A stretch of 64,000 nt of DNA, from NCBI GenBank assembly GCA_963697895.1, contig OY969100.1, positions 1,184,001-1,248,000 of the forward strand, in the 5' to 3' direction. Shown here one piece after another: positions 289-13,189 of this stretch. Below the pieces are notes generated by a model. That model was not told the DNA's origin. It saw only the letters and a program-made list of their open reading frames with translations, and made no database searches. A program made the position numbers and the translations under genes. Source of the stretch: an uncultured Methanomicrobiales archaeon. GTDB lineage: Archaea > Halobacteriota > Methanomicrobia > Methanomicrobiales > Methanospirillaceae. Each line of letters opens with the position of its first letter. The stretch's first letter is position 1.

Positions 289-1044
289 ATGGACGTTACC
301 CTTATTTCTGCAATGTTTGAAGGATTACCCCGGCAAGGTCCGGGATCGGATGAATCAACCGTTCGTGCCTGTTCCTGTATCCCGTCCTCTTTCAGGGTGG
401 GGAAAATTCTGGACATCGGGTGCGGTTCCGGGATGCAGACCCTTGCTCTGGCACAGTACTTTCCGGATAGCAAGGTTACGGCGATCGATATCCATCGACC
501 GTTTCTCGATGAACTGCGGAAAAGGGCAAAAATTGCCGGTCTTGATGAGAGGATCTTAACTCACCGGGCATCGATGGACAATCTTCCCTTTGAAGAAGAG
601 TCCTTTGATATTGTCTGGGCAGAAGGTTCCGCGTTTATCATGGGGCTCTCTTCTGCGCTCGGGTACTGGAAAACATTTTTAAAACCGGATGGATTTCTGG
701 TATTTTCTGACTGTACCTGGTTTACTGATTCGCCGTCAGAAGAGTGCAGGGTTTTCTTCGATACCGTATCTCCTGATATGCCGTCGGAATCCGGTACTGA
801 AGAGATCGTTCGATCTGCAGGGTTTACCGTTGTCGGTTCATTCCGGCTTCCCGATGCAGGGTGGTGGGATCAGTGTTATTCTCCTTTGGCAGAACGGATT
901 CCCCGGTTAAAAGAAAAATATGCAACCAATCACGATGCACTGGATATCATACACGGGTTAGAAACTGAGCTGGAGATTCATCGAAAATATTCAAAGGAAT
1001 ATGGATATTGCTTTTTCATAATAAAGAATACCGATTCGGAATAA
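289..1044 (+). CDS. Class I SAM-dependent methyltransferase
   Basis: ILDIGCGSG motif I, LPRQGPGS N-terminus, FDIVWAEGS. Confidence 0.9.
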   Translation: MDVTLISAMFEGLPRQGPGSDESTVRACSCIPSSFRVGKILDIGCGSGMQTLALAQYFPDSKVTAIDIHRPFLDELRKRAKIAGLDERILTHRASMDNLPFEEESFDIVWAEGSAFIMGLSSALGYWKTFLKPDGFLVFSDCTWFTDSPSEECRVFFDTVSPDMPSESGTEEIVRSAGFTVVGSFRLPDAGWWDQCYSPLAERIPRLKEKYATNHDALDIIHGLETELEIHRKYSKEYGYCFFIIKNTDSE

Positions 1045-1118
1045 ATCAGGAAGAGAAGAGCGGGGCTGTATCGTCGTGCAGAAAGAATGATTAAGCAAAA
1101 CCGGAGCTATGGTGACGT

Positions 1119-1541
1119 ATGGATTTTTTTAACGCGGCATACAAAGGCTCACCTCCCTGGGACATCGGCCGGCCCCAGAAGGAGTTCGTCGGGCTGGTCC
1201 GGAGCGGAGAGATCACCGGATCGGTACTCGACATCGGATGCGGGACCGGGGAGCATGCCCTCTTCTTTGCGGGTGAAGGGCACGAGGTCTGGGGGATCGA
1301 CTCGGCACCCCGGGCGATAGAGAAGGCAAAGGAGAAGGCTGCCGAAAGAGGACTTCATGTAAATTTTCTCGTCTGGAGTGCCCTGGACCTCTCCTCGCTC
1401 GACCGGACGTTCGATACCGCCACGGATTCCGGGCTCTTCCATACGCTGTCCGATGCAGACCGCCCGGTCTTCGTGGAGAACCTTGCAGCCGTCCTGGCTC
1501 CGGGCGGGAAATACTTCATGCTCTGCTTCTCCGATATCGAA
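1119..1541 (+). pseudogene. Class I SAM-dependent methyltransferase, 5' part (interrupted by insertion)
   Basis: PPWDIGRPQ and VLDIGCGTG motifs; coding-like sequence ends at CFSDIE (1541), then reads into AT-rich DNA and stops at 1556. Confidence 0.85.
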
Positions 1542-1747
1542 ATCACTTTCAATTGATTCAAGTCAAACTGAATTAGTGCACCCTGTGGCAAGCTGTGGTG
1601 TATACGGATAAAATTAAGTGATTCTAAAGGTTTTGAAGAACAATAAGAGACTTTATTCTTTATTAGACAACCCTGGTAGTCACCCCAGGGAACGCGTTTG
1701 GAGGAATTGGGAACTTCACGGTGATTTGTTTATATTTTATCAATTGT

Positions 1748-2052
1748 GATATCTGGAGAGCCTATACCGGAATTGCCTCTCGCGGATTGTTCATTGTCTG
1801 GTGAATCATGGAGAGAAACCGTATACCGATGGGAAAGGAAATCATATCAATGGCCTCGAAGGATTCTGGGGTTACCTGAAGAGAAAACTTGCCTTAAAAG
1901 GAGGAATCCGACGGGAGATACTACCTCTTTATCTCGGTGAATGTGAATATATGGGCGATACAATCATCGAAAGGGAAAGTGGGATCATGAGGGTGAGACG
2001 AATTCTCAAATTGTTACAACAGGAGGTTGGTGGCTAGATTGCCACTATACCC
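1748..2052 (+). pseudogene. IS1595-family (ISXO2-like) transposase 3' remnant with probable right end
   Basis: DIWRAYTGIASRG, VNHGEK..GNHINGLEGFWGYLKR and RYNHR pieces lie in shifting frames; followed by ...GCCACTATACCC. Confidence 0.75.
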
Positions 2053-2082
2053 ACAAAATAATGTTTCAAAGAAAATACTGTC

Positions 2083-3228
2083 TCATACCAAATGTGACCC
2101 GCATTGCCCGCAATATTTTGATCCTTGAAGAACTGAAGCCCCGCAGTTACCACATTTGATTGATTGTTCTGATATTTTCACTTCAATCCCACATTCAGGA
2201 CAAAATTTTATATTAGCTGCAATTTTGTTACCACATTTTCTACAAATAGATGATTCTTGAGATTCAAGAGAAGAACTCTCCGATGCAGTTTTCTCTCCAG
2301 CCGAACGTCCGAAGTCTTTATTCTTATCTCCACCTACCATACCTTTCGAGAGCTCTTGAGCCATAGAAAAGCCTGCACCCATTCCAACCCCTAGTCCCGC
2401 AAGATTCGCTGTATCTCCTCCCTTTGAAGCACCGATTCCAATACCCTCAATGGTTTTTCCTGTTTGGTATTGCATATAGTCAACACCGAGAGCTGACATG
2501 GCACCCCTTTTATCAATGGCAGATTGAACCTCATCCGGGAGATTTAGGTTTAGTCCCGCGAATTTTGTAACTTTTAACCCATAATTTTCAGTCTCTGATG
2601 TTAATTTTGCGAGGCACAGTTGTTCAATTGCCTGTAAATACGAAGGCATATCAAGAACACCCATCCCCTTATGCATTTTTAGCTCTCCAAGAGCATTGTT
2701 AAGAACCATTACAATCTGGTCCTTCAGCCAGTTTACAATCTCCTCAGACTTCGTCATTCCCTTAGTTCCAACGAACTGGGTGATTAAAAGCATCGGATCT
2801 GTAACTTTATATGCGAACTGTCCGAACGAACGAATTCTTATAACCCCAAAATCAACATCTCTGAAGGTCAGGGGTTCGGTTGTTCCAAAATATGAACGGA
2901 ATTCCCTTCTCTGAAGCCAATAAAATTCGCCTATCTGCTTAATACCTATGAGTTTACTCGCAATTGCTTGAAGCCCGGGAATATTCTGAGTTGTGAGAGC
3001 ATATCGATTAGCGCTGTCAAAAGTACGCATTACCTTCCCGTCTCGAAGGAAAACCCCATATTCATCTTCTCTAACGACAACATTGTCATTCCACATAATA
3101 TTCTGGGGAAGCCGCCAGATTACATTCTCCCCCTTATGTTCATCCGGCCAATAGAATGTTTTCCGAGATTCTGTTCCCTTGATATCGCTGCCCACTCCCG
3201 TACTTCGCACCCTCTCAAAGTTGCTCAT
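2083..3228 (-). CDS. SPFH/Band-7 domain protein with C-terminal double zinc ribbon (YdjI-like)
   Basis: VVVREDEYGVFLRDGK, FRDVDFG..IRSFGQF, glycine-rich GLGVGMGAG segment, four CxxC at the C-terminus. Confidence 0.85.
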   Translation of the reverse strand: MSNFERVRSTGVGSDIKGTESRKTFYWPDEHKGENVIWRLPQNIMWNDNVVVREDEYGVFLRDGKVMRTFDSANRYALTTQNIPGLQAIASKLIGIKQIGEFYWLQRREFRSYFGTTEPLTFRDVDFGVIRIRSFGQFAYKVTDPMLLITQFVGTKGMTKSEEIVNWLKDQIVMVLNNALGELKMHKGMGVLDMPSYLQAIEQLCLAKLTSETENYGLKVTKFAGLNLNLPDEVQSAIDKRGAMSALGVDYMQYQTGKTIEGIGIGASKGGDTANLAGLGVGMGAGFSMAQELSKGMVGGDKNKDFGRSAGEKTASESSSLESQESSICRKCGNKIAANIKFCPECGIEVKISEQSIKCGNCGASVLQGSKYCGQCGSHLV

Positions 3229-3764
3229 CAGATTACCCCTATATCTGCCATTTTTTCATGCCTTTCCTCAAGAAGTTCAATAACAGCTTCGAACCTTTGT
3301 CTTAGTTCGGAACATATTTGTTGTGCTTGACTTGTTTCATCCTTGTTAATTTCTTGATTAAGTTTAATGCTAAGATCTTCTAATTCCTTGATTTTCTGAA
3401 TCATACCCCAGTCATAATAATAGAGTGCATATAGTTGTTCTTCGTCAATCTGGTAACTGGGAGAAATGCCAGAGTACCCTTGTTCAGCATGCCCAATGCG
3501 CCCTTCAATCGTTTTTTCCATTTGGATAAGGGTTCCTACTTCACTTAAAAGAGGTAGGTTAAGCCGAGAAGCAATAATCTTTCGGGATTCTTCCAAATTA
3601 TCTCCAATATCCTCACGAAGTTTTTTTGCAAGCTCGAGTCGCAAAAGACTATCAGATGCTCTGATATCCTCTCGCTTCCGATATCCACGAAAACCGGGAA
3701 TTGCAAGTTCAATGTTTTTTATGAGTCCACGGTCTTTTTCAACTCGTTCAATCAGATCAGTCAT
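3228..3764 (-). CDS. Helical hypothetical protein coupled to the SPFH gene
   Basis: 178-aa ORF with IPGFRGYRKREDIR and GYSG motifs; its stop overlaps the SPFH start at 3228. Confidence 0.75.
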   Translation of the reverse strand: MTDLIERVEKDRGLIKNIELAIPGFRGYRKREDIRASDSLLRLELAKKLREDIGDNLEESRKIIASRLNLPLLSEVGTLIQMEKTIEGRIGHAEQGYSGISPSYQIDEEQLYALYYYDWGMIQKIKELEDLSIKLNQEINKDETSQAQQICSELRQRFEAVIELLEERHEKMADIGVI

Positions 3765-3785
3765 ATCACAACTTAGTTCTCTTCT

Positions 3786-4136
3786 TTATTCATAACAAGA
3801 TAAAAGAATAACCCCCAAAGCACAAATGATTAGAATCCCACCAATTAAGAGACCCAAATTTAATGCAGGTCCCTGGGGTCTTGTGAAAAGACTCACAATT
3901 CCAATGAATGCGAGAACCCCCGCAAATCCAAAGAGGTAATTATTTTTTTCTCCGACTTTTATTGCTAGGACTCCTAAAATAATTGAAAGACCAAGGAAAA
4001 AAATCCCTCCAGCGAGATGAATATCCCCGCCACTAATATAATTAAGAATTATTCCTATACCTAGCATCAATGCCAGGGATGCATATCCCAGCTTAAATCT
4101 TTTATCACTGGATCCTTTTCTTTTCTTACTATCCAT
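3786..4136 (-). CDS. Small 4-TM membrane protein
   Basis: Four hydrophobic stretches in 116 aa; co-oriented 21 bp upstream of the helical gene. Confidence 0.7.
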   Translation of the reverse strand: MDSKKRKGSSDKRFKLGYASLALMLGIGIILNYISGGDIHLAGGIFFLGLSIILGVLAIKVGEKNNYLFGFAGVLAFIGIVSLFTRPQGPALNLGLLIGGILIICALGVILLSCYE

Positions 4137-4266
4137 AATAAATAAAAAATATAATTTTTGGCTTTTAAAAGTGTCGGAATATTTACCAAAATTGATCCAA
4201 CTATATCGATCAATTAAATTACATCCTGTGAGTAAAGTCTAAATAGAGAATCAATAAAGAATTTTT

Positions 4267-5076
4267 ATGCCATTTCATGTAGCCAAATGCCCAACGTGTG
4301 GTGCTAGCCTAGAATTAGAAAAACCAAGCGACGTTATGATATGCAAATTTTGTGGCAATAAAATCTTTTTCAAAGAATCAATAGAAGGAGATATCAATAA
4401 AATCACTAACTTTCTTCAGTTGGCCAACAATGAAATGGAATCTGGCAATTTTCAGAAAGCTATTGAATATTTCAATAAAGTCTTAGAGAATGACCCTAAG
4501 AATTCTGCTGCATATCTTGGAAAAGGGTTGTCCTATGGCAGACTGTGTACTGTTGAAGATTTTAAATTTAATGAGTTGCTAGCTGGGTATTCGAATGCGC
4601 AAAAATATGTACCAAATAATGGTAAAAAAGAATTCATCTCTTCTTCAACTGATTTATTATATAATCATGGCATGAATTGCGAAAAAGAATTACATGAAAA
4701 ATTTATTTATGGTGTGACTGATAAGGAATTGAATTATTATATTGAAAGATCTTTCCAAATAATCAGCTTTTATCAAGCAATATACCAGATTAACGAATGT
4801 GATCTGAGATCTCCCAAAAGAATAGTGGAGATAACAAAAACATTGAGTCTCGGTGTAAAAGGGAAGGGTAATCGCTATGATACAAATTGTAATTTGATAC
4901 AAGATTGGAGATATGAGCTAAAACCCGAGATAATTGAAAGGATAAAAACAATACAAAATGATTATATTGAAATTATTCAAAAAACTGAGCCCGAATTTAT
5001 CTTGGTTACGGAAGAAAGAGATATTATCAAGCCTGAATCTAAAAAGAAGGGATTCTTTGAGAGATTTAGAATATAA
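4267..5076 (+). CDS. Zinc-ribbon + TPR protein
   Basis: CPTCG...CKFCG N-terminus; TPR GNFQKAIEYFNKVLENDPKNSAAYLGKG; C-terminal KKKGFFERFRI. Confidence 0.8.
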   Translation: MPFHVAKCPTCGASLELEKPSDVMICKFCGNKIFFKESIEGDINKITNFLQLANNEMESGNFQKAIEYFNKVLENDPKNSAAYLGKGLSYGRLCTVEDFKFNELLAGYSNAQKYVPNNGKKEFISSSTDLLYNHGMNCEKELHEKFIYGVTDKELNYYIERSFQIISFYQAIYQINECDLRSPKRIVEITKTLSLGVKGKGNRYDTNCNLIQDWRYELKPEIIERIKTIQNDYIEIIQKTEPEFILVTEERDIIKPESKKKGFFERFRI

Positions 5077-5113
5077 CCTTTTAATGGTTTTTATCCCTCC
5101 CAAAACAAGCTAA

Positions 5114-5341
5114 TTAAGGATAATCAATATAATCTCTATCGGAATAAGGATTGCAATCTCTCAGTCGATAAATTATCTTTTTGCTGGCATTTCTGAATGG
5201 GTATTTTTCCAAAGCAAAAATTGCATAGTTCGAGCAAGTCGGGTAATGTAAACATTTATGATTCTTATTTCTTGTGGAATATTGATAAACCTTAATCAAT
5301 GCGATAGCCTGGCAATTTAACCAGGGAATTTTCTTCTCCAT
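5114..5341 (-). CDS. yidD: Membrane protein insertion efficiency factor YidD-like
   Basis: LIKVYQ, CLHYPTCSNYA, LRDCNP motifs. Confidence 0.8.
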   Translation of the reverse strand: MEKKIPWLNCQAIALIKVYQYSTRNKNHKCLHYPTCSNYAIFALEKYPFRNASKKIIYRLRDCNPYSDRDYIDYP

Positions 5342-5368
5342 AAAAAAGGATATATTTTAATGAAATTT

Positions 5369-5762
5369 TTATCCTCCAGTTAATTCGTGGTGTATGGCGC
5401 GAATCTCAAGTCCCTTTTGCCTATTCGGGAAGGGGACCCCAAACACTGCTCCTTGAGCATTCACTCTTAGTTCCCAATATTTTTTAGCCAGACATCCTTT
5501 AGGTTGTACTTCAACAATTTCCATACTTGAAATGTTTTTTAGTCTGTAACGTGCCTTCTCTTTCCACATATGCCTCTCCTTCTTTAACCTTTGCATGGTA
5601 TAAAAACCTCTTATCGGTTAATGCTGCCCAAAAATTCCCTTTGCTCAAGAAACTTAGACACCCACTCATCTCAACTGGAGAGAAAAAATAAATTTTTTCA
5701 TCGGGTGTAAGCTGCTTTACTAAATCGTCTGGTAGACCTTCTCTCTTTAATTCTACTGGCAT
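5369..5762 (-). pseudogene. PH-like domain protein with a +1 frameshift near 5543
   Basis: ORF 5762-5511 (LTPDEKIYF..ALTDKRFL..EREGTL) continues in another frame as LKNISSMEIV; removing one base joins them. Confidence 0.6.
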
Positions 5763-5920
5763 ATAGCATTTCTTAATTATCCTTCATTATATAAAATTAA
5801 CGAAATAAGTTTCAATAAATTTAGATAAAAATTTAATGATTTGAAGCTCACTCCTCAAACGGTGCCAGGATCCTGGCGATTTCAGGATTACCGACGCATC
5901 TTTCAGCAATTGAAGTATCT

Positions 5921-6076
5921 CCTCCCGGGTACGGCCCGCGGAGGATAACGCAAAAAGAGATCCGGGACAGTTTCCGCGACGGGTGGACGATCAATTACAT
6001 CCGGGCAGCGGCCTTCGAGAGCCGCACCCGGCCCGGAGGACCCCGTGCCTGGCTCTCCTCGATATCTAAAGAATGA
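5921..6076 (+). pseudogene. Methyltransferase 3' part (51 aa)
   Basis: PPGYGPRRITQKEIRDSFRDGWTINYIRAAAFESRTRPGGPRAWLSSISKE*, the expected continuation after CFSDIE. Confidence 0.85.
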
Positions 6077-6168
6077 CGCTCGTTGACGGGAAACGCCCGC
6101 TCCTGAATGACCGGATCCAAACGTAGTGGTACATCAAAAGTCCGGGGTAAAAAGGAAGGAGATTTACC

Positions 6169-6768
6169 TTAAAATACGATCTCTTCCTTTGCAAACCGCA
6201 CCTTGGGCATCGGCTTGTCCGCCGCGTACCCGAGCGGGCAGAGCATCGTGGGGACGAGCGGCGACGGGATCTTCAGGATCCGCGTGTACTCCCCGGGGTC
6301 GAACCCTCCCATCGGGCAGGAATCGAAGCCGAGCGACTTTGCGCCGTTCACGGCATTCCCGAGCGCAAGGAAGACCTGGGACTGCGCCCAGCAGAGTTTC
6401 TGCTCCGGGCTCATCTTCCCGGTCATATCGGTTGCGATCCCGATCACCATGTTCCGCATCTCATCGGGTGCGCCGGACGTCTTCAACAACGTATCGACTT
6501 TCTGAATCAGGCTTCCAAAGTCCGGGTTCGCGCAGAAGACCAGCAGGTGCGAACAGGTAGTGACCTGCTCCTGGTCATTGGTCGCCGGCTTCAGCTGCTC
6601 CTTTACCTTCTGGTCGGTGACCACCGTGATCTTCCACGGCTGGAGGTTGAGGGCCGAAGGAGCGAACCGGACGATCTCCAGGAGCTGGTTGACCTTCTCT
6701 TCGGGAAGCTTCCGGCCGTCGAATTTCTTGGTCGCATACCGCGACATGACAATTTCCGCAAAATCCAT
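6169..6768 (-). CDS. Nitroreductase family protein
   Basis: SRYATKKFD, APSALNLQPW, DSCPMGGFD. Confidence 0.9.
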   Translation of the reverse strand: MDFAEIVMSRYATKKFDGRKLPEEKVNQLLEIVRFAPSALNLQPWKITVVTDQKVKEQLKPATNDQEQVTTCSHLLVFCANPDFGSLIQKVDTLLKTSGAPDEMRNMVIGIATDMTGKMSPEQKLCWAQSQVFLALGNAVNGAKSLGFDSCPMGGFDPGEYTRILKIPSPLVPTMLCPLGYAADKPMPKVRFAKEEIVF

Positions 6769-6895
6769 TTCATCACTCCGTTCCAGGATACGCTTCTCTT
6801 ACCCGGGGCTGCTATTTATACCATTCCCATCCGGCCCGATGACCCCGGTCTCACCGCCATCTTTATGGTGAGACAGGCATATCAGCAGGACAGGA

Positions 6896-7552
6896 GTGAG
6901 GGAGATGGAACAGGAGACCGTAGGGGAGAGGGAATACCTGGTATTCCCGGGGAGATATCCGGTAGGTATCGTCCTCGTGCATGAGATCCGGGGCGTCGAC
7001 GAGTACGCACGGTCGGTCGCCGGTAAGCTTGCCGCGGCCGGGTACCCCGTGGTCGCCGTGGACCTCTTCCGGGGCCGTCATGCGACGACGCTTCAGGAAG
7101 GGTACGATATCGTCGCGAAGCTGAACAAGGAGGAGGTCCTCGGGACGCTCTCCGTCGGGATCCGCCTCCTGAAGGAGCGGTCTGGCGAGGATGCCGTCAT
7201 CGGCTCGATGGGGTTCTGCATGGGCGGCGGGTATGCCCTGCAGGGGGCATGCGACCTGGACTTCGGGTTCTGCATCGATTACTACGGCATGGTCCCGGAG
7301 GCCGGCGATCTCCGCGGCCTGAAAGGACCGGTCATCCTCTTCCTCGGGACCGAGGACCCCCGCGTCACCCCGTGGGCGTACACGGGTTTCCTCCCGGCGG
7401 CGAACCAGTACAAAAAACGGGTCGATCTCCACCTGTACCCCGGGGCAGGCCACGCGTTTCACCGGCCCGGATGGGAAGGCCACAACCCGGAGGCGGCGAA
7501 GGATGCCTGGACAAAGACGATGGCATTCCTCAGCGCATGCCGGACGGATTGA
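6896..7552 (+). CDS. Dienelactone hydrolase family protein
   Basis: HEIRG, GFCMGG nucleophile motif, YPGAGHAF. Confidence 0.9.
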   Translation: MREMEQETVGEREYLVFPGRYPVGIVLVHEIRGVDEYARSVAGKLAAAGYPVVAVDLFRGRHATTLQEGYDIVAKLNKEEVLGTLSVGIRLLKERSGEDAVIGSMGFCMGGGYALQGACDLDFGFCIDYYGMVPEAGDLRGLKGPVILFLGTEDPRVTPWAYTGFLPAANQYKKRVDLHLYPGAGHAFHRPGWEGHNPEAAKDAWTKTMAFLSACRTD

Positions 7553-7654
7553 AACGGACAGGAATGGATATCGAACGGATCAGGCTCCGGCCGGTCGGAT
7601 ACCCGCCGAAGAACTTTTACAGAACACCCCCATAACGGAATAGAGCAGGATCCC

Positions 7655-8014
7655 ATGACAGACATAGTCCCCGAACCCGACCGGCTGGTCATCCTCTGGA
7701 CCAGCGGCGACCGGGAGGTCGCGTTGAAGATGGTCTTCATGTACGTGCATAATGCAGCCCGGAAGAAATGGTGGAAGGAACTCACGTTCGTCGTCTGGGG
7801 ACCCTCGACCCGGCTGCTCTCGCAGGACCCCGAACTGCAGTCCCATATCCGGGAGATGAAAGGAGAGGGAGTGATCCTCCAGGCCTGCCGGACATGTGCG
7901 GATTCGTACGGGGTCGCCCCGGTCCTCTCCGAACTCGGTATCGACGTGAAACTGATGGGTGAACCGCTGACCCGGTTCCTCAGGGATCCCCGGTGCCGGT
8001 TGATGACCTTCTGA
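7655..8014 (+). CDS. DsrE family protein
   Basis: LVILWTSGDRE, VWGPS, ACRTCADSYGV. Confidence 0.8.
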   Translation: MTDIVPEPDRLVILWTSGDREVALKMVFMYVHNAARKKWWKELTFVVWGPSTRLLSQDPELQSHIREMKGEGVILQACRTCADSYGVAPVLSELGIDVKLMGEPLTRFLRDPRCRLMTF

Positions 8015-8509
8015 CCGGAACCGTACCGCCGATCGCCAATTGACGAAATCCTTCCCGATATGGAACCGGGCTTTTATACGAAAGAGACTGATATACCGAA
8101 TCCGCATCGAAGTTTATAGGTCTTTATTCATGGATCACAAAACAGGACCGGGGACCCTTTACACCGGATTTCCTCTTTCGGGAACATAACTGTTCTTTGC
8201 ACCTGCCGGGAAATGATTTCCCGTCGCGACAATTTCGTTTTTTCCCCGTCCCCTGACGTGTGTATCGGAATCGATCAGGATTTGCCACGAAGGTTAGAGG
8301 TTTAAGCGGTCACGCTCTTATAGTGCCTATAACTGATCGGTTGAAAAAATTTAAGGTACATGGCGAATATTTTAAAAAACAAAAGGGAAAGGAGTTTTAA
8401 ACAAAATGACTGACAACCTGACAATACCCGTCGACGACGGCCCAATGGGGATCGTCAACCACGATTCGTGCACTTTCCAGACAGGACCGCCGACAGGCGG
8501 GGTGAACCT

Positions 8510-9400
8510 ATGAAACGGACAAGCCTCACTGCGGTCCTCCTCCTCATCGCCATCGCGATGCTGCCTGCCATCGCGGCAGGAGCGAGCTCGTACTGGTCGA
8601 ACCAGATCATCGGGCCGGATTATACCGTACCTGCGAACGCGTTCAACCCGCCCGATGCAACTGAATGGAACAAATTTTATGGAGGCTATGCATCGCAGAT
8701 AGCATCCCCGTACGAAACACCGGGCGGACTCCTGCCGTATGACTTCACGGATACCGCCCCCATCAACGCGACACCGGCAACACCGGGCTCCCTGTACCCG
8801 CGGGCAGTCACCGTGCTTCCGATAATCCCGGGTACGGGTCCCGGCGTGTTCCCGGTATATTCGGATACCGTTCCCTCGCCGGTTGTCCCGGGGAATTTCG
8901 CAGTCGTTTCTCCATCCATATTGTTCCCCTCCGGGAACGGCAGCCCGGTTCCGGTATCGTTCCCGAACCCTGCCATCATTCCCTTCGTATATCCGGTCCC
9001 CGTGCTCCCGGATACCCCGGATTCCGGCGGAGCTTCGGTGACGCCGACACCCACACCGGCACCTGAAGAGGCTGTCTTCATCAGCGACCTGAATCTCCAG
9101 GAGGATTATGTGAAGATTACGAACAGCGGGCTTACGCAGGTGGATCTGACCGGGTGGAAGATTGTCGAGGGAAATACCCGGCAGACGATCACGTTCATCG
9201 CCTTCCCGCAGGGGAACGGCCAGACATTCACCTTCACCCTGTACCCGCTGACCACCCTGACCGTCTATTACGGGAAAACCGGGCCGGTCACGGCGACCGA
9301 GGCATACTGGCCGTCCGCGAAGAACGTCTGGAACGACCAGGGTGATACCGCATACCTCTATAACCCCCAGGGACATCTGGTGAGTTCGCTCACCCGGTAG
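8510..9400 (+). CDS. Secreted Pro-rich protein with C-terminal lamin tail domain
   Basis: Signal peptide MKRTSLTAVLLLIAIAML; LTD motifs DYVKITNSG..VDLTGWKI and VWNDQGDTAYLYN. Confidence 0.8.
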   Translation: MKRTSLTAVLLLIAIAMLPAIAAGASSYWSNQIIGPDYTVPANAFNPPDATEWNKFYGGYASQIASPYETPGGLLPYDFTDTAPINATPATPGSLYPRAVTVLPIIPGTGPGVFPVYSDTVPSPVVPGNFAVVSPSILFPSGNGSPVPVSFPNPAIIPFVYPVPVLPDTPDSGGASVTPTPTPAPEEAVFISDLNLQEDYVKITNSGLTQVDLTGWKIVEGNTRQTITFIAFPQGNGQTFTFTLYPLTTLTVYYGKTGPVTATEAYWPSAKNVWNDQGDTAYLYNPQGHLVSSLTR

Positions 9401-9800
9401 AATTTTCTCTTTTTTCTCGTCCGTTTTAGAACAAACCAACCCGTTTTACGCGGATCCTATGCCCCGTGGCCGGGTACCGATCACCGGTTGAAGGATCATA
9501 AGATCGGTTCTGAAATACCCGGCCGGAGCGCGATAGCAAACGGTTATCCTTCGTTATTTTGCCTGAAATAACGAATTATAGGAGAGATCGGGGATTTTCT
9601 CCGATCGGAGACCTATACGGGCAGCATTCAGATAAAACGGAGCCCCCGGAAGCCCCGGATGGGATGACCTCTCCCGCTATTCGAAGAGAATTCAGTCATT
9701 AAAGCAGGAATCCGGTCATTTTTCAGCAAAATTTCAGATCAGTTGTTCCCTCATAGGCATCGGCAAGATCCACGGTAAATGATAGCATCCTCACCCTTAT

Positions 9801-9823
9801 CATTAGGTAAACCCTAACTAATG
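9801..9823. promoter_or_regulatory. Candidate MarR operator (imperfect palindrome)
   Basis: CATTAGGTAAACCCTAACTAATG contains TTAGG/CCTAA and CATTAG/CTAATG inverted pairs just upstream of the marR start. Confidence 0.35.
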
Positions 9824-9835
9824 AGAGATCGAAAC

Positions 9836-10257
9836 ATGAGAGAACGCGGAGGAGCACCTGTTCGAAGCGCTGGAGAACCTTCTCCGCGAAAAGAACGAAT
9901 GTTCCTCCCGGATCCTCTCCGAATGCGGATTATCGGACATGACGGTCAGGCAGATCGCCTACCTAAAAACCATCGACGAGGACAGGGGAAGTCACCTTCA
10001 CCCGGCTCGCGGAGATCACCCGGAACTCGAAACCGACGATCACCGAGATGGTCAACAAGTTCGTCCGGAGGGAGTGCGTCTACCGCGAACCCTGCAGGGA
10101 AGACGGGAGGGTCCTCTACATCCGCCTGACCGAGAAGGGGCAGCGGATCGCACAGGCCGAAGACGACGCCCTGCGCCAGGTGATCGAACGGATGATGGAG
10201 ACCCTCGACGAACGCGAGCAGGAACTCCTCATCCGGCTGCTGGAAAAGGTCAGGTAA
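9836..10257 (+). pseudogene. MarR family regulator with two +1 frameshifts (~9848, ~9984)
   Basis: Joined reading MRER/EEHLFEALENLL..MTVRQIAYLKTIDED/GEVTFTRLAEITRNSKPTITEMVNKF..EDGRVLYIRLTEKG. Confidence 0.8.
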
Positions 10258-10313
10258 TTCTCTTGCCGCACACATTCGCATCAAAGATCAAAGCTTTATT
10301 ATCGAGGCAACCC

Positions 10314-12701
<2,388 letters not shown>

Positions 12702-12865
12702 AAAGGTAAGAAGGGGTTCGGGCGGTATTTAGGAATGACAAAGTCCGGCCCCTCCAAACCCTTCATTCTGTGTACGGAGAAACCCGGGGCGTTCTCTGGA
12801 CCAATTCCGGTGACCATACTCTTATTGTAGAGGAATCGCCAAACACCATACAAGGATGTGAACGG

Positions 12866-13189
12866 ATGCCCGATCTCGTCACAACGCGCCGGCGCAAAAG
12901 TCCTCTTATCAAAAAACTGGAAGGAGCAGCCCCGGCTATCAGCTCACAGTTCGGGGTGACAAAGATCGGCATCTTCGGGTCGTTTGCCCGCGGCGAACAG
13001 ACACGGAAGAGCGACGTGGACGTGCTCGTGGATTTTGCCGAAGGGCACGCAACACTTAAAAATTTTGTCGGACTTGCCGATCTCCTTGAAACGCTCTTCA
13101 AACGGAAAGTGGATCTCATCACGGTCGAAGGGGTTGATAAATATATCCGCGAGAAGATTGAGGCCGAGGTGATCTGGGTTGAAGGATAA
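12866..13189 (+). CDS. MNT minimal nucleotidyltransferase antitoxin
   Basis: FGSFARGEQTRKSDVDVLV (GSX10DXD), RKVDLIT. Confidence 0.9.
   Translation: MPDLVTTRRRKSPLIKKLEGAAPAISSQFGVTKIGIFGSFARGEQTRKSDVDVLVDFAEGHATLKNFVGLADLLETLFKRKVDLITVEGVDKYIREKIEAEVIWVEG

Follow-up and report, generated by a model that had tools for sequence, protein, structure and literature searches.

The stretch of DNA analysed here, hereafter the window, comprises positions 1,184,001 to 1,248,000 (64,000 nucleotides) of contig OY969100.1 from an uncultured Methanomicrobiales archaeon of the Methanospirillaceae (GCA_963697895.1). It contains an S-adenosylmethionine (SAM)-dependent methyltransferase gene that is split between two codons by an insert of 4,379 bp (1542..5920), which has a GC content of 37.4%, is present in a single copy and lacks a target-site duplication. 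Our preferred reading, to which we give roughly even weight, is that the insert represents a recent capture of a foreign chromosomal fragment that was joined blunt into a break by end joining. The insert thus is a case of gene disruption by horizontally acquired DNA, which is a kind of event already known. The genome to which the window belongs (denoted G000) consists of a single contig of 2.09 Mb with a GC content of 53.8%, and it is 93.85% complete as judged by marker genes.

Bases 1119-1541 and 5921-6073 are the two parts of one class I SAM methyltransferase of 192 amino acids. The N-terminal part of 141 codons (1119..1541, + strand) matches the Pfam family Methyltransf_25 with an E-value of 6.6e-23, and aligns to intact homologs at 100% cover and 82-91% identity. 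The C-terminal part of 51 codons plus a stop codon (5921..6076, + strand) lacks a start codon of its own and aligns, immediately downstream of the N-terminal part, with the final 51 residues of 10 intact homologs. At the left joint, the codons TTC TCC GAT ATC GAA run to position 1541 and are followed by ATCACTTTCAATTGA, so that the frame continues for four codons (ITFN) inside the insert and ends with a stop at 1554-1556, giving an open reading frame (ORF) of 145 amino acids (1119-1556). At the right joint, coding sequence resumes at 5921 with CCT CCC GGG TAC, which is translated as PPGYGPRRITQKEIRDSF...SISKE (PPGYGPRR...SISKE), and the stop codon is located at 6074-6076.

The exactness of the split is supported by two alignments. 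When the 141- and 51-residue parts were aligned separately with 10 intact homologs from the genomes of relatives (the homolog of locus L009 was missed by a motif filter and left out), they abutted between SDIE and PPGY with no gap or overlap. In addition, the rejoined protein was aligned with 116 homologs, three of the 119 database homologs having been dropped for lengths outside 190-200 amino acids. Residues 141 and 142 occupied adjacent columns, and all 117 rows were free of gaps up to 3 columns from the joint. This is the ungapped alignment that had been proposed as a check in a preliminary description of the locus, and its central statement, that the gene is split exactly in frame, holds against every intact homolog examined. 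The words most frequently found at the joint among the homologs are SDLEPPGY, SELEPGGY and SDLEPAGY. Six short database proteins matching the C-terminal part were considered as possible splits at the same site and rejected, as all of them cross the joint without interruption.

The closest intact relative of the rejoined protein (P0002, 192 amino acids) is 91% identical in the N-terminal part. The solved structure 6mro_A from Methanosarcina acetivorans (194 amino acids) matches residues 3-190 of P0002 with an E-value of 5e-50 and, since this alignment covers residues 3-190, the C-terminal part belongs to a single domain. The split gene is a full-length, single-domain match, over 192 of 192 residues, to a family of 192-residue archaeal class I SAM methyltransferases. 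Because the 51 absent residues belong to the one domain, the truncated product of 145 amino acids should be inactive. The methyltransferase gene is therefore regarded as a fresh pseudogene, composed of a truncated ORF and a remainder without promoter and start codon. In the annotation, the ORF at 1119-1556 should be flagged as disrupted, and the 51 codons at 5921-6076 should be assigned to the same gene.

The insert begins with AT where the right flank begins with CC, and it ends in CT where the left flank ends in AA, so that the boundary cannot be slid in either direction. The AT-rich character attributed to the insert was confirmed along with its extent, its GC content of 37.4% contrasting with 58.1% in the rest of the window, and the strings given in the preliminary description for the empty site and the circle junction agree with the sequence. 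There is no target-site duplication, as the host gene is complete with no extra bases. No direct repeat spans the junctions: the longest word shared by the 50-nt junction windows is CAATTGA, which is the core of a palindrome and lies out of register (+8 and -14). No inverted repeat is present at the very tips, the outer 6 nt of which match at only 1 of 6 positions. The 4-nt word TATC, which occurs near both junctions, was rejected as a crossover core because its use would have frameshifted the target, and a dinucleotide core of the serine or IS110 type was rejected because the junction dinucleotides differ. Likewise, a Tn916-type coupling-sequence model was rejected, since the asymmetric layout that it predicts was not seen.

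These properties of the junctions narrow down the enzymes that could have placed the insert. A tyrosine, serine or IS110-type recombinase acting by site-specific crossover does not fit, because the junctions share no core, and transposition by a DDE enzyme does not fit because a duplication is absent. In the genome, a single tyrosine recombinase was found, in a frame of 307 amino acids far from the locus. In this genome, 93.85% complete, no Y1 transposase, no IS110-type DEDD enzyme and no serine recombinase (resolvase) was found, the respective controls being positive in 6, 6 and 12 of 14 genomes; at this completeness, such enzymes may have been missed. The transposases that were seen are all of the IS1595 type and include intact copies. 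A third IS1595-type transposase gene (G000:C1:1829970-1830382, - strand) is split into two pieces, which cover profile positions 2-109 and 114-153, and is frameshifted or broken. Transposition of IS1595-family insertion sequences (IS) leaves the inverted repeats of the family at both tips and an 8-bp target duplication. Since the insert has neither, the IS1595 transposases do not fit as its movers. Two routes remain: either the insert is a transposon that makes no duplication and whose enzyme is encoded outside this genome, or a linear fragment was simply ligated into a break.

The second of these routes has a concrete agent in the host, since the genome encodes Ku, a polymerase, a phosphoesterase and a second ligase. 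A LigD-type primase-polymerase gene (260 bits) is located directly upstream of a gene for Ku (123 bits) at G000:C1:465649-467341 (L153, 4649-6341), and a gene for a LigD_N phosphoesterase (148 bits) is located about 200 bp from a gene for a second ATP-dependent ligase (DNA_ligase_A_M, 116 bits) at G000:C1:1917989-1919098. This second ligase is distinct from the ligase in a 578-residue frame elsewhere in the genome, which is presumably the replicative one. The end-joining set of Ku, polymerase (Pol), phosphoesterase (PE) and ligase is therefore complete, in the form of four separate genes. According to a preprint (10.1101/2023.09.30.560322) that takes Methanocella paludicola as its model in this respect, these four functions make up the complete archaeal end-joining set, and the same preprint gives the number of surveyed archaeal species with all four as only 97. 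For Ku itself, 8 of 41 relatives (G000 among them) and 1 of 14 control genomes were positive. The set is distributed patchily among relatives, and the host belongs to the minority of its order in which it is complete.

That end joining can place foreign DNA in a chromosome has been described for the bacterium Sinorhizobium meliloti, in which, as reported, a break was induced in the chromosome and end joining by Ku and LigD placed a heterologous cassette there in all 285 of the 285 transformants analysed (PMC6379672). A deletion at one end is given there for 5 of 23 sequenced cases and, by that report's own account, capture through end joining had before then merely been suggested by comparative genomics (PMC6379672). 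For the present locus we propose an analogous course of events. A double-strand break would have arisen between codons 141 and 142 of the gene for the small-molecule-type SAM methyltransferase, and a linear piece of the chromosome of another archaeon, probably a member or relative of the same order with a lower GC content, would have been captured at this break. The fragment would have been ligated blunt, with no host bases lost or gained, by the Ku-dependent non-homologous end joining of the host, involving Ku, the primase-polymerase, the phosphoesterase and the second ATP-dependent ligase. The outcome would be the truncated product of 145 amino acids and a promoterless, start-less C-terminal piece, and an insert formed in this manner would probably be unable to leave again. 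In line with this proposal, the junctions show neither homology nor duplication nor recombinase sites. We prefer an end-joining capture to a dedicated element because the left end of the insert resembles debris and its cargo is of mixed cellular origin, as detailed below.

Several observations weigh against the proposed capture. End joining, as the probable maker of the junctions, is what remains after other mechanisms have been set aside, and it is linked to the insertion by the presence of the genes rather than by a direct tie, the end-joining activity of these archaeal genes being itself predicted from their sequences. Seven of 40 relatives likewise possess Ku, and this insertion was seen in none of the seven. 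Furthermore, end joining often trims or fills the ends, and both junctions are perfect here. No donor locus was found among the genomes of the order in which the fragment ends could be seen to fall at arbitrary points of a longer sequence. Lastly, the insert ends carry a symmetric 8-nt inverted repeat that is not expected in a random fragment and hints that the ends were made by a sequence-specific enzyme.

The arms of this repeat are TTCAATTG (1548..1555), located 6 nt inside the left tip, and CAATTGAA (5907..5914), located 6 nt inside the right tip. The 8-mers have 19 and 23 copies in the genome, respectively. For random 40-mers of the insert, the probability of an 8-nt inverted match at equal offset was estimated post hoc at 0.0007, or 0.0046 when a slip of up to 3 nt was allowed. 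The subterminal repeat could be due to chance, or it could be the mark of a sequence-specific enzyme. We also considered an intron. The sole pairing at the boundaries is this symmetric one (6 nt plus 8 bp on each side), which differs from the staggered layout of introns of the bulge-helix-bulge type, and a search of Rfam gave no matches over positions 1000-6500 at E-values of up to 1; a self-splicing or bulge-helix-bulge intron was therefore rejected.

The repeat speaks in favour of the idea, put forward in the preliminary description, that the insert is a non-autonomous element mobilised in trans. Such an element would move by a cut-and-paste or peel-and-paste mechanism without duplication, it would be recognised through the subterminal CAATTGAA by an enzyme that is encoded elsewhere, perhaps only in the donor, and it might still be precisely excisable. 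The exact insertion without duplication is as in the IS200/IS605, IS91 and IS110-type families, the 8-nt arms are rare in the genome and lie at equal offsets, and the host gene has not decayed. However, the insert occurs once in the genome, the 200 nt at either end having no further match of more than 19 nt. Neither of its 25-nt ends was found with up to 3 mismatches in any of 227 other genomes of the family, and the ends were not matched by blastn in 400 other genomes of the order. When the genome of G000 was searched for further segments bounded by the TTCAATTG/CAATTGAA pair, none had a comparable drop in GC content. Suitable enzymes of the Y1, IS110 and serine types were not found in this genome, the tips outside the repeat are unrelated to each other, and the left end is directly followed by debris of other repeats. 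We therefore consider a trans-mobilised element unlikely, and the evidence does not bear out this part of the earlier proposal.

A related idea is that the tips were cut 6 nt outside the motif by an enzyme recognising CAATTGAA. This enzyme might be an unknown archaeal transposase that makes no duplication, or a nuclease resembling type IIS restriction enzymes whose product was ligated by the host Ku system. We regard this idea as a long shot. If the transposase variant were true, the insert would be the first seen member of a new type of cargo-carrying, trans-mobilised element that spares its target gene on excision; if the nuclease variant were true, it would be a natural footprint of gene transfer by restriction plus end joining in archaea.

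We further examined the state of the gene in relatives. In 79 of 80 metagenome loci, the homolog is in one piece across the joint, and the remaining locus (L074) meets the end of its contig before the joint. Among the 228 genomes of the family, a set that holds no other genome of the genus of G000, 80 have a homolog matching at an E-value of 1e-40 or better. The short frame (146 amino acids) was seen only in G000, the other matches lying in frames of at least 192 amino acids. The split is thus peculiar to G000 among the material examined, and the comparison of the locus across genomes, which the preliminary description had suggested for finding other cargo at the same position, yielded uninterrupted genes instead.

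Two sediment metagenome runs, in which a share of 0.05-0.06 of the sequence words was found and which contain relatives about 85-97% alike, gave the same picture. Contigs from these runs (about 90% alike) extend over the methyltransferase gene upstream, the split gene itself and a nitroreductase gene downstream, and they join position 1540 to position 5924 with 4 letters between them, which corresponds to an uninterrupted gene. The insert itself was essentially uncovered, with trace depth in two of its bins in one run (X1) and none in the other (X2). As the bridging contigs are only about 90% alike, they stem from other organisms. Their continuity across the site shows that the uninterrupted methyltransferase gene is the ancestral state and does not show excision. 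The nitroreductase gene is kept beside the methyltransferase gene at only 1 of about 96 loci (L123), and the conserved neighbourhood rests mainly on the short sediment contigs.

These findings also bear on the suggestion that the insert acts as a programmed DNA switch, whose excision in certain circumstances would bring the methyltransferase back, in the manner known for skin in sigK. Its sole attraction is that the gene is whole and undecayed once exactly 1542-5920 is taken out. The insert has neither a recombinase of its own nor att repeats, the features that define skin and the nifD element, with which it had been compared, and the direct repeat, the target duplication and the inverted repeat at the tips are likewise absent. 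The interrupted state was found in none of the 79 other family genomes with the gene and in none of the 80 metagenome loci. We therefore hold a DNA switch to be scarcely credible.

Two further observations on homologs were made. A homolog outside both the 80 metagenome loci and the 228 family genomes (P0009, on a database contig of 59.8 kb) is truncated at 147 amino acids and ends in ...SDLEPAR, two codons past the split site. A simple frameshift of the usual sequence does not account for this end, which may represent a second interruption near the same place and prompted the idea of a hot spot. At three metagenome loci (L064, L072 and L078), the methyltransferase homologs are about 90-120 nt longer in the N-terminal part, resembling short in-frame insertions.

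The insertion appears to be recent. Both halves of the gene are free of stop codons, and the rejoined protein departs from the consensus at none of the columns that are at least 95% conserved, whereas the 116 homologs have a median of 1 such departure and at most 5. On the scale of protein divergence, the insertion is accordingly young. Of the two properties that had been offered as alternatives, recent or still excisable, the first is thus upheld by the sequence, and the second is not. Frame changes in the cargo (see below) and in the hsdR gene upstream of the window cannot serve as signs of age, since the change in the cargo lies at a homopolymer and is possibly an assembly error. Indeed, this change at six A residues and the low completeness of a genome in one contig suggest that the assembly contains homopolymer errors.

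The quality of the assembly raises the question of whether the insert could be a chimeric join in a single-contig assembly of the metagenome type. The genome is in one contig and nonetheless only 93.85% complete, and at least one gene of the insert as well as hsdR are spread over two frames, as would fit an error-prone long-read assembly. However, a chimera would need two false joins that together resume the same series of codons without skipping or repeating a base. Moreover, the junction sequences occur nowhere else in the genome, so that the assembler cannot have been misled by a repeat. An assembly artefact is therefore very improbable.

The content of the insert is best read as a mosaic of ordinary cellular genes rather than as a self-contained mobile element. 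Its left tip consists of 19 nt of unassigned origin (before 1561), followed by an internally deleted copy of a non-coding repeat of about 155 nt (1561..1620, + strand), the middle of which is absent. This is the only copy of the repeat in G000, and two genomes of another genus of the family, G046 and G047, have five and seven copies, respectively. Repeats of this family (L138, 2271-2430; L140-L149) contain two GC-rich hairpins, have no obvious inverted termini and may represent a small RNA or a miniature element. Further to the right, a 5'-truncated and frameshifted remnant of an IS1595-family transposase (about 1740..2052, + strand) corresponds to residues 169-262 of 262 and matches DDE_Tnp_IS1595 with an E-value of 2.9e-4. 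A tblastn comparison with the genome's own copy of 262 amino acids gave 60% identity over 91 residues plus a second frame. This IS retains an intact right terminal inverted repeat, the end of which lies within the insert at 2052. The IS is genuinely truncated, because for all copies in relatives, the best of which is 85% alike, the match starts at insert position 196-207. Altogether, the left 500 bp or so of the insert are best read as donor junk, composed of a deleted repeat copy and the 3' third of an IS1595 element. The earlier characterisation of the insert as recombinase-less thus stands in that it has no functional recombinase, a Pfam scan of its 8 ORFs (10 proteins scanned) having detected only the truncated DDE piece, and it needs to be amended by this frameshifted remnant.

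The IS is followed by an operon of three genes on the - strand, which encode a hydrophobic protein of 116 amino acids without a family match (3786..4136, the first gene), a coiled-coil protein of 178 amino acids (3228..3764; NCBIfam LIMLP_15305_fam, E-value of 4.8e-9, below the cut-off) and an SPFH/Band 7 protein of 381 amino acids with a C-terminal double zinc ribbon (2083..3228; Band_7_1, E-value of 7.4e-37; Zn_Ribbon_1/DZR). The genes for the SPFH protein and its coiled-coil partner are adjacent in all four of the closest loci, and all three operon genes are present in two of the four (L020 and L021). The records of the closest SPFH loci are titled Methanomicrobiales, Methanocalculus and Methanocorpusculum, with protein identities of 53-64%. 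The right part of the insert encodes a protein of 269 amino acids with an N-terminal zinc ribbon and one TPR (4267..5076, + strand; Pfam TPR_2, E-value of 3.5e-6, below or at the cut-off) and a YidD-type membrane protein insertion efficiency factor of 75 amino acids (5114..5341, - strand; YidD, E-value of 3.7e-14; TIGR00278, 53.4 bits at a cut-off of 40), which is 69% identical to its counterpart in another genome (G101). The last gene is spread over two overlapping frames of 83 and 75 amino acids (5369..5762, - strand), and corresponds to one ORF of 131 amino acids beside yidD in G101. The change of frame lies at a run of six A residues (about 5535-5540) and could reflect either a genuine frameshift or a homopolymer error made in the assembly.

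An order-wide blastn search of 401 genomes matched only internal pieces of the insert, namely the IS (up to 85%), the SPFH operon (65-72%) and yidD with its neighbour (68%). These best partial relatives, 65-85% alike, never extend to the ends of the insert, and a near-identical donor locus was not found among the 401 genomes. An origin of the cargo from a virus or a defence system was rejected: PADLOC gave no matches among 7 cargo proteins, the PHROG matches were weak, mostly to the zinc-ribbon and TPR parts and all but one of unknown function, and searches of viral contigs gave no close relative for the 269-residue protein and no loci for the 381-residue protein. As no recombinase, defence system or clear viral family is present, and the pieces are 65-85% identical in nucleotide sequence to DNA of the same order, we regard the cargo as cellular DNA from this order.

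The same observations are relevant to the view that the insert is the remnant of a larger integrated element, such as a virus, a plasmid or an IS1595 composite transposon, that later lost its recombinase and most of its genes. The IS1595 piece, the intact IS1595 copies elsewhere in the genome and the position of the insert beside a defence-type island of low GC content with a type I restriction system speak for this view. However, both outer junctions are original and have neither the 8-bp duplication that IS1595 would leave nor an att repeat, the intact IS end at 2052 is inside the insert rather than at its tip, and a clear viral family, a PADLOC match and relatives on viral contigs were not found. 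We therefore judge such a remnant to be improbable.

Comparison with known systems leads to a similar assessment. The cyanobacterial nifD element is an excisable gene-interrupting element and, like skin in sigK and SPbeta in spsM, it shares with the present insert the interruption of a coding gene whose frame is restored upon exact removal. In contrast, the insert has no site-specific recombinase of its own, no att repeats and no conserved interrupted state. A literature search for excisable elements that interrupt archaeal genes turned up bacterial cases only, among them skin and SPbeta. The IS1595 family, which includes members with passenger genes, has in common with the insert the transposase remnant with its right inverted repeat and the intact copies in the genome, whereas the remnant lies internally and lacks its 5' part, and the insert shows neither IS1595 inverted repeats at its tips nor an 8-bp duplication. 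IS200/IS605 elements and the non-autonomous palindrome-associated transposable elements (PATEs), as well as IS91, IS110 and IS607, insert without a target-site duplication, and the exact insertion without duplication or long terminal inverted repeats is shared with them. The insert differs from these by the lack of a detected Y1, DEDD or serine transposase and of a shared junction dinucleotide, by its single copy and by its large cellular cargo. Integrative mobile elements exploiting Xer (IMEX) are recombinase-less elements that use the host Xer recombinase at dif. The insert also lacks a recombinase, and the host has one tyrosine recombinase, but the target is inside a coding gene rather than dif, and no dif-like repeats flank the insert. 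A miniature inverted-repeat transposable element (MITE) or another short non-autonomous DDE element was rejected, because inverted repeats at the tips and a target duplication are absent. The insert thus belongs neither to the IS1595 elements, MITEs or IMEX nor to the introns.

By analogy, the insert appears most like an end-joining capture of foreign DNA, as known from one bacterial experiment. With the capture by non-homologous end joining described for S. meliloti (PMC6379672) it would have in common a foreign fragment in a break, without homology, duplication or recombinase, and a host with Ku and LigD-type functions. It would differ from what that report describes (PMC6379672) in being natural and archaeal, in the four separate genes, the perfect junctions and the symmetric 8-nt motif, and in being known from sequence alone.

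A switch or a new mobile element would have been of consequence, and the evidence does not carry that interpretation. The value of the locus is rather that it represents a clean natural example of foreign DNA entering an archaeal chromosome without homology, transposase or integrase. For the study of capture by end joining, a dated pair of natural archaeal junctions that are exact to the base would be useful. The locus is of moderate interest, on account of its exact junctions, its symmetric motif and the occurrence of a rare archaeal end-joining set in the host genome.

Lastly, some features of the neighbourhood are worth recording. The gene directly upstream of the split gene (289-1044, + strand; GC content of 0.47) encodes an unrelated second SAM methyltransferase of 251 amino acids. 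Directly upstream of the window, an island of low GC content (0.39-0.56) extends over positions 3171-13185 of locus L150 (G000:C1:1173171-1183185), and the split gene is located about 2 kb from the edge of this island. The island encodes a type I restriction-modification system (hsdR, present as overlapping ORFs of 435 and 533 amino acids, hsdS and hsdM), two ORFs without a known family and a DEAD-box helicase of 972 amino acids.

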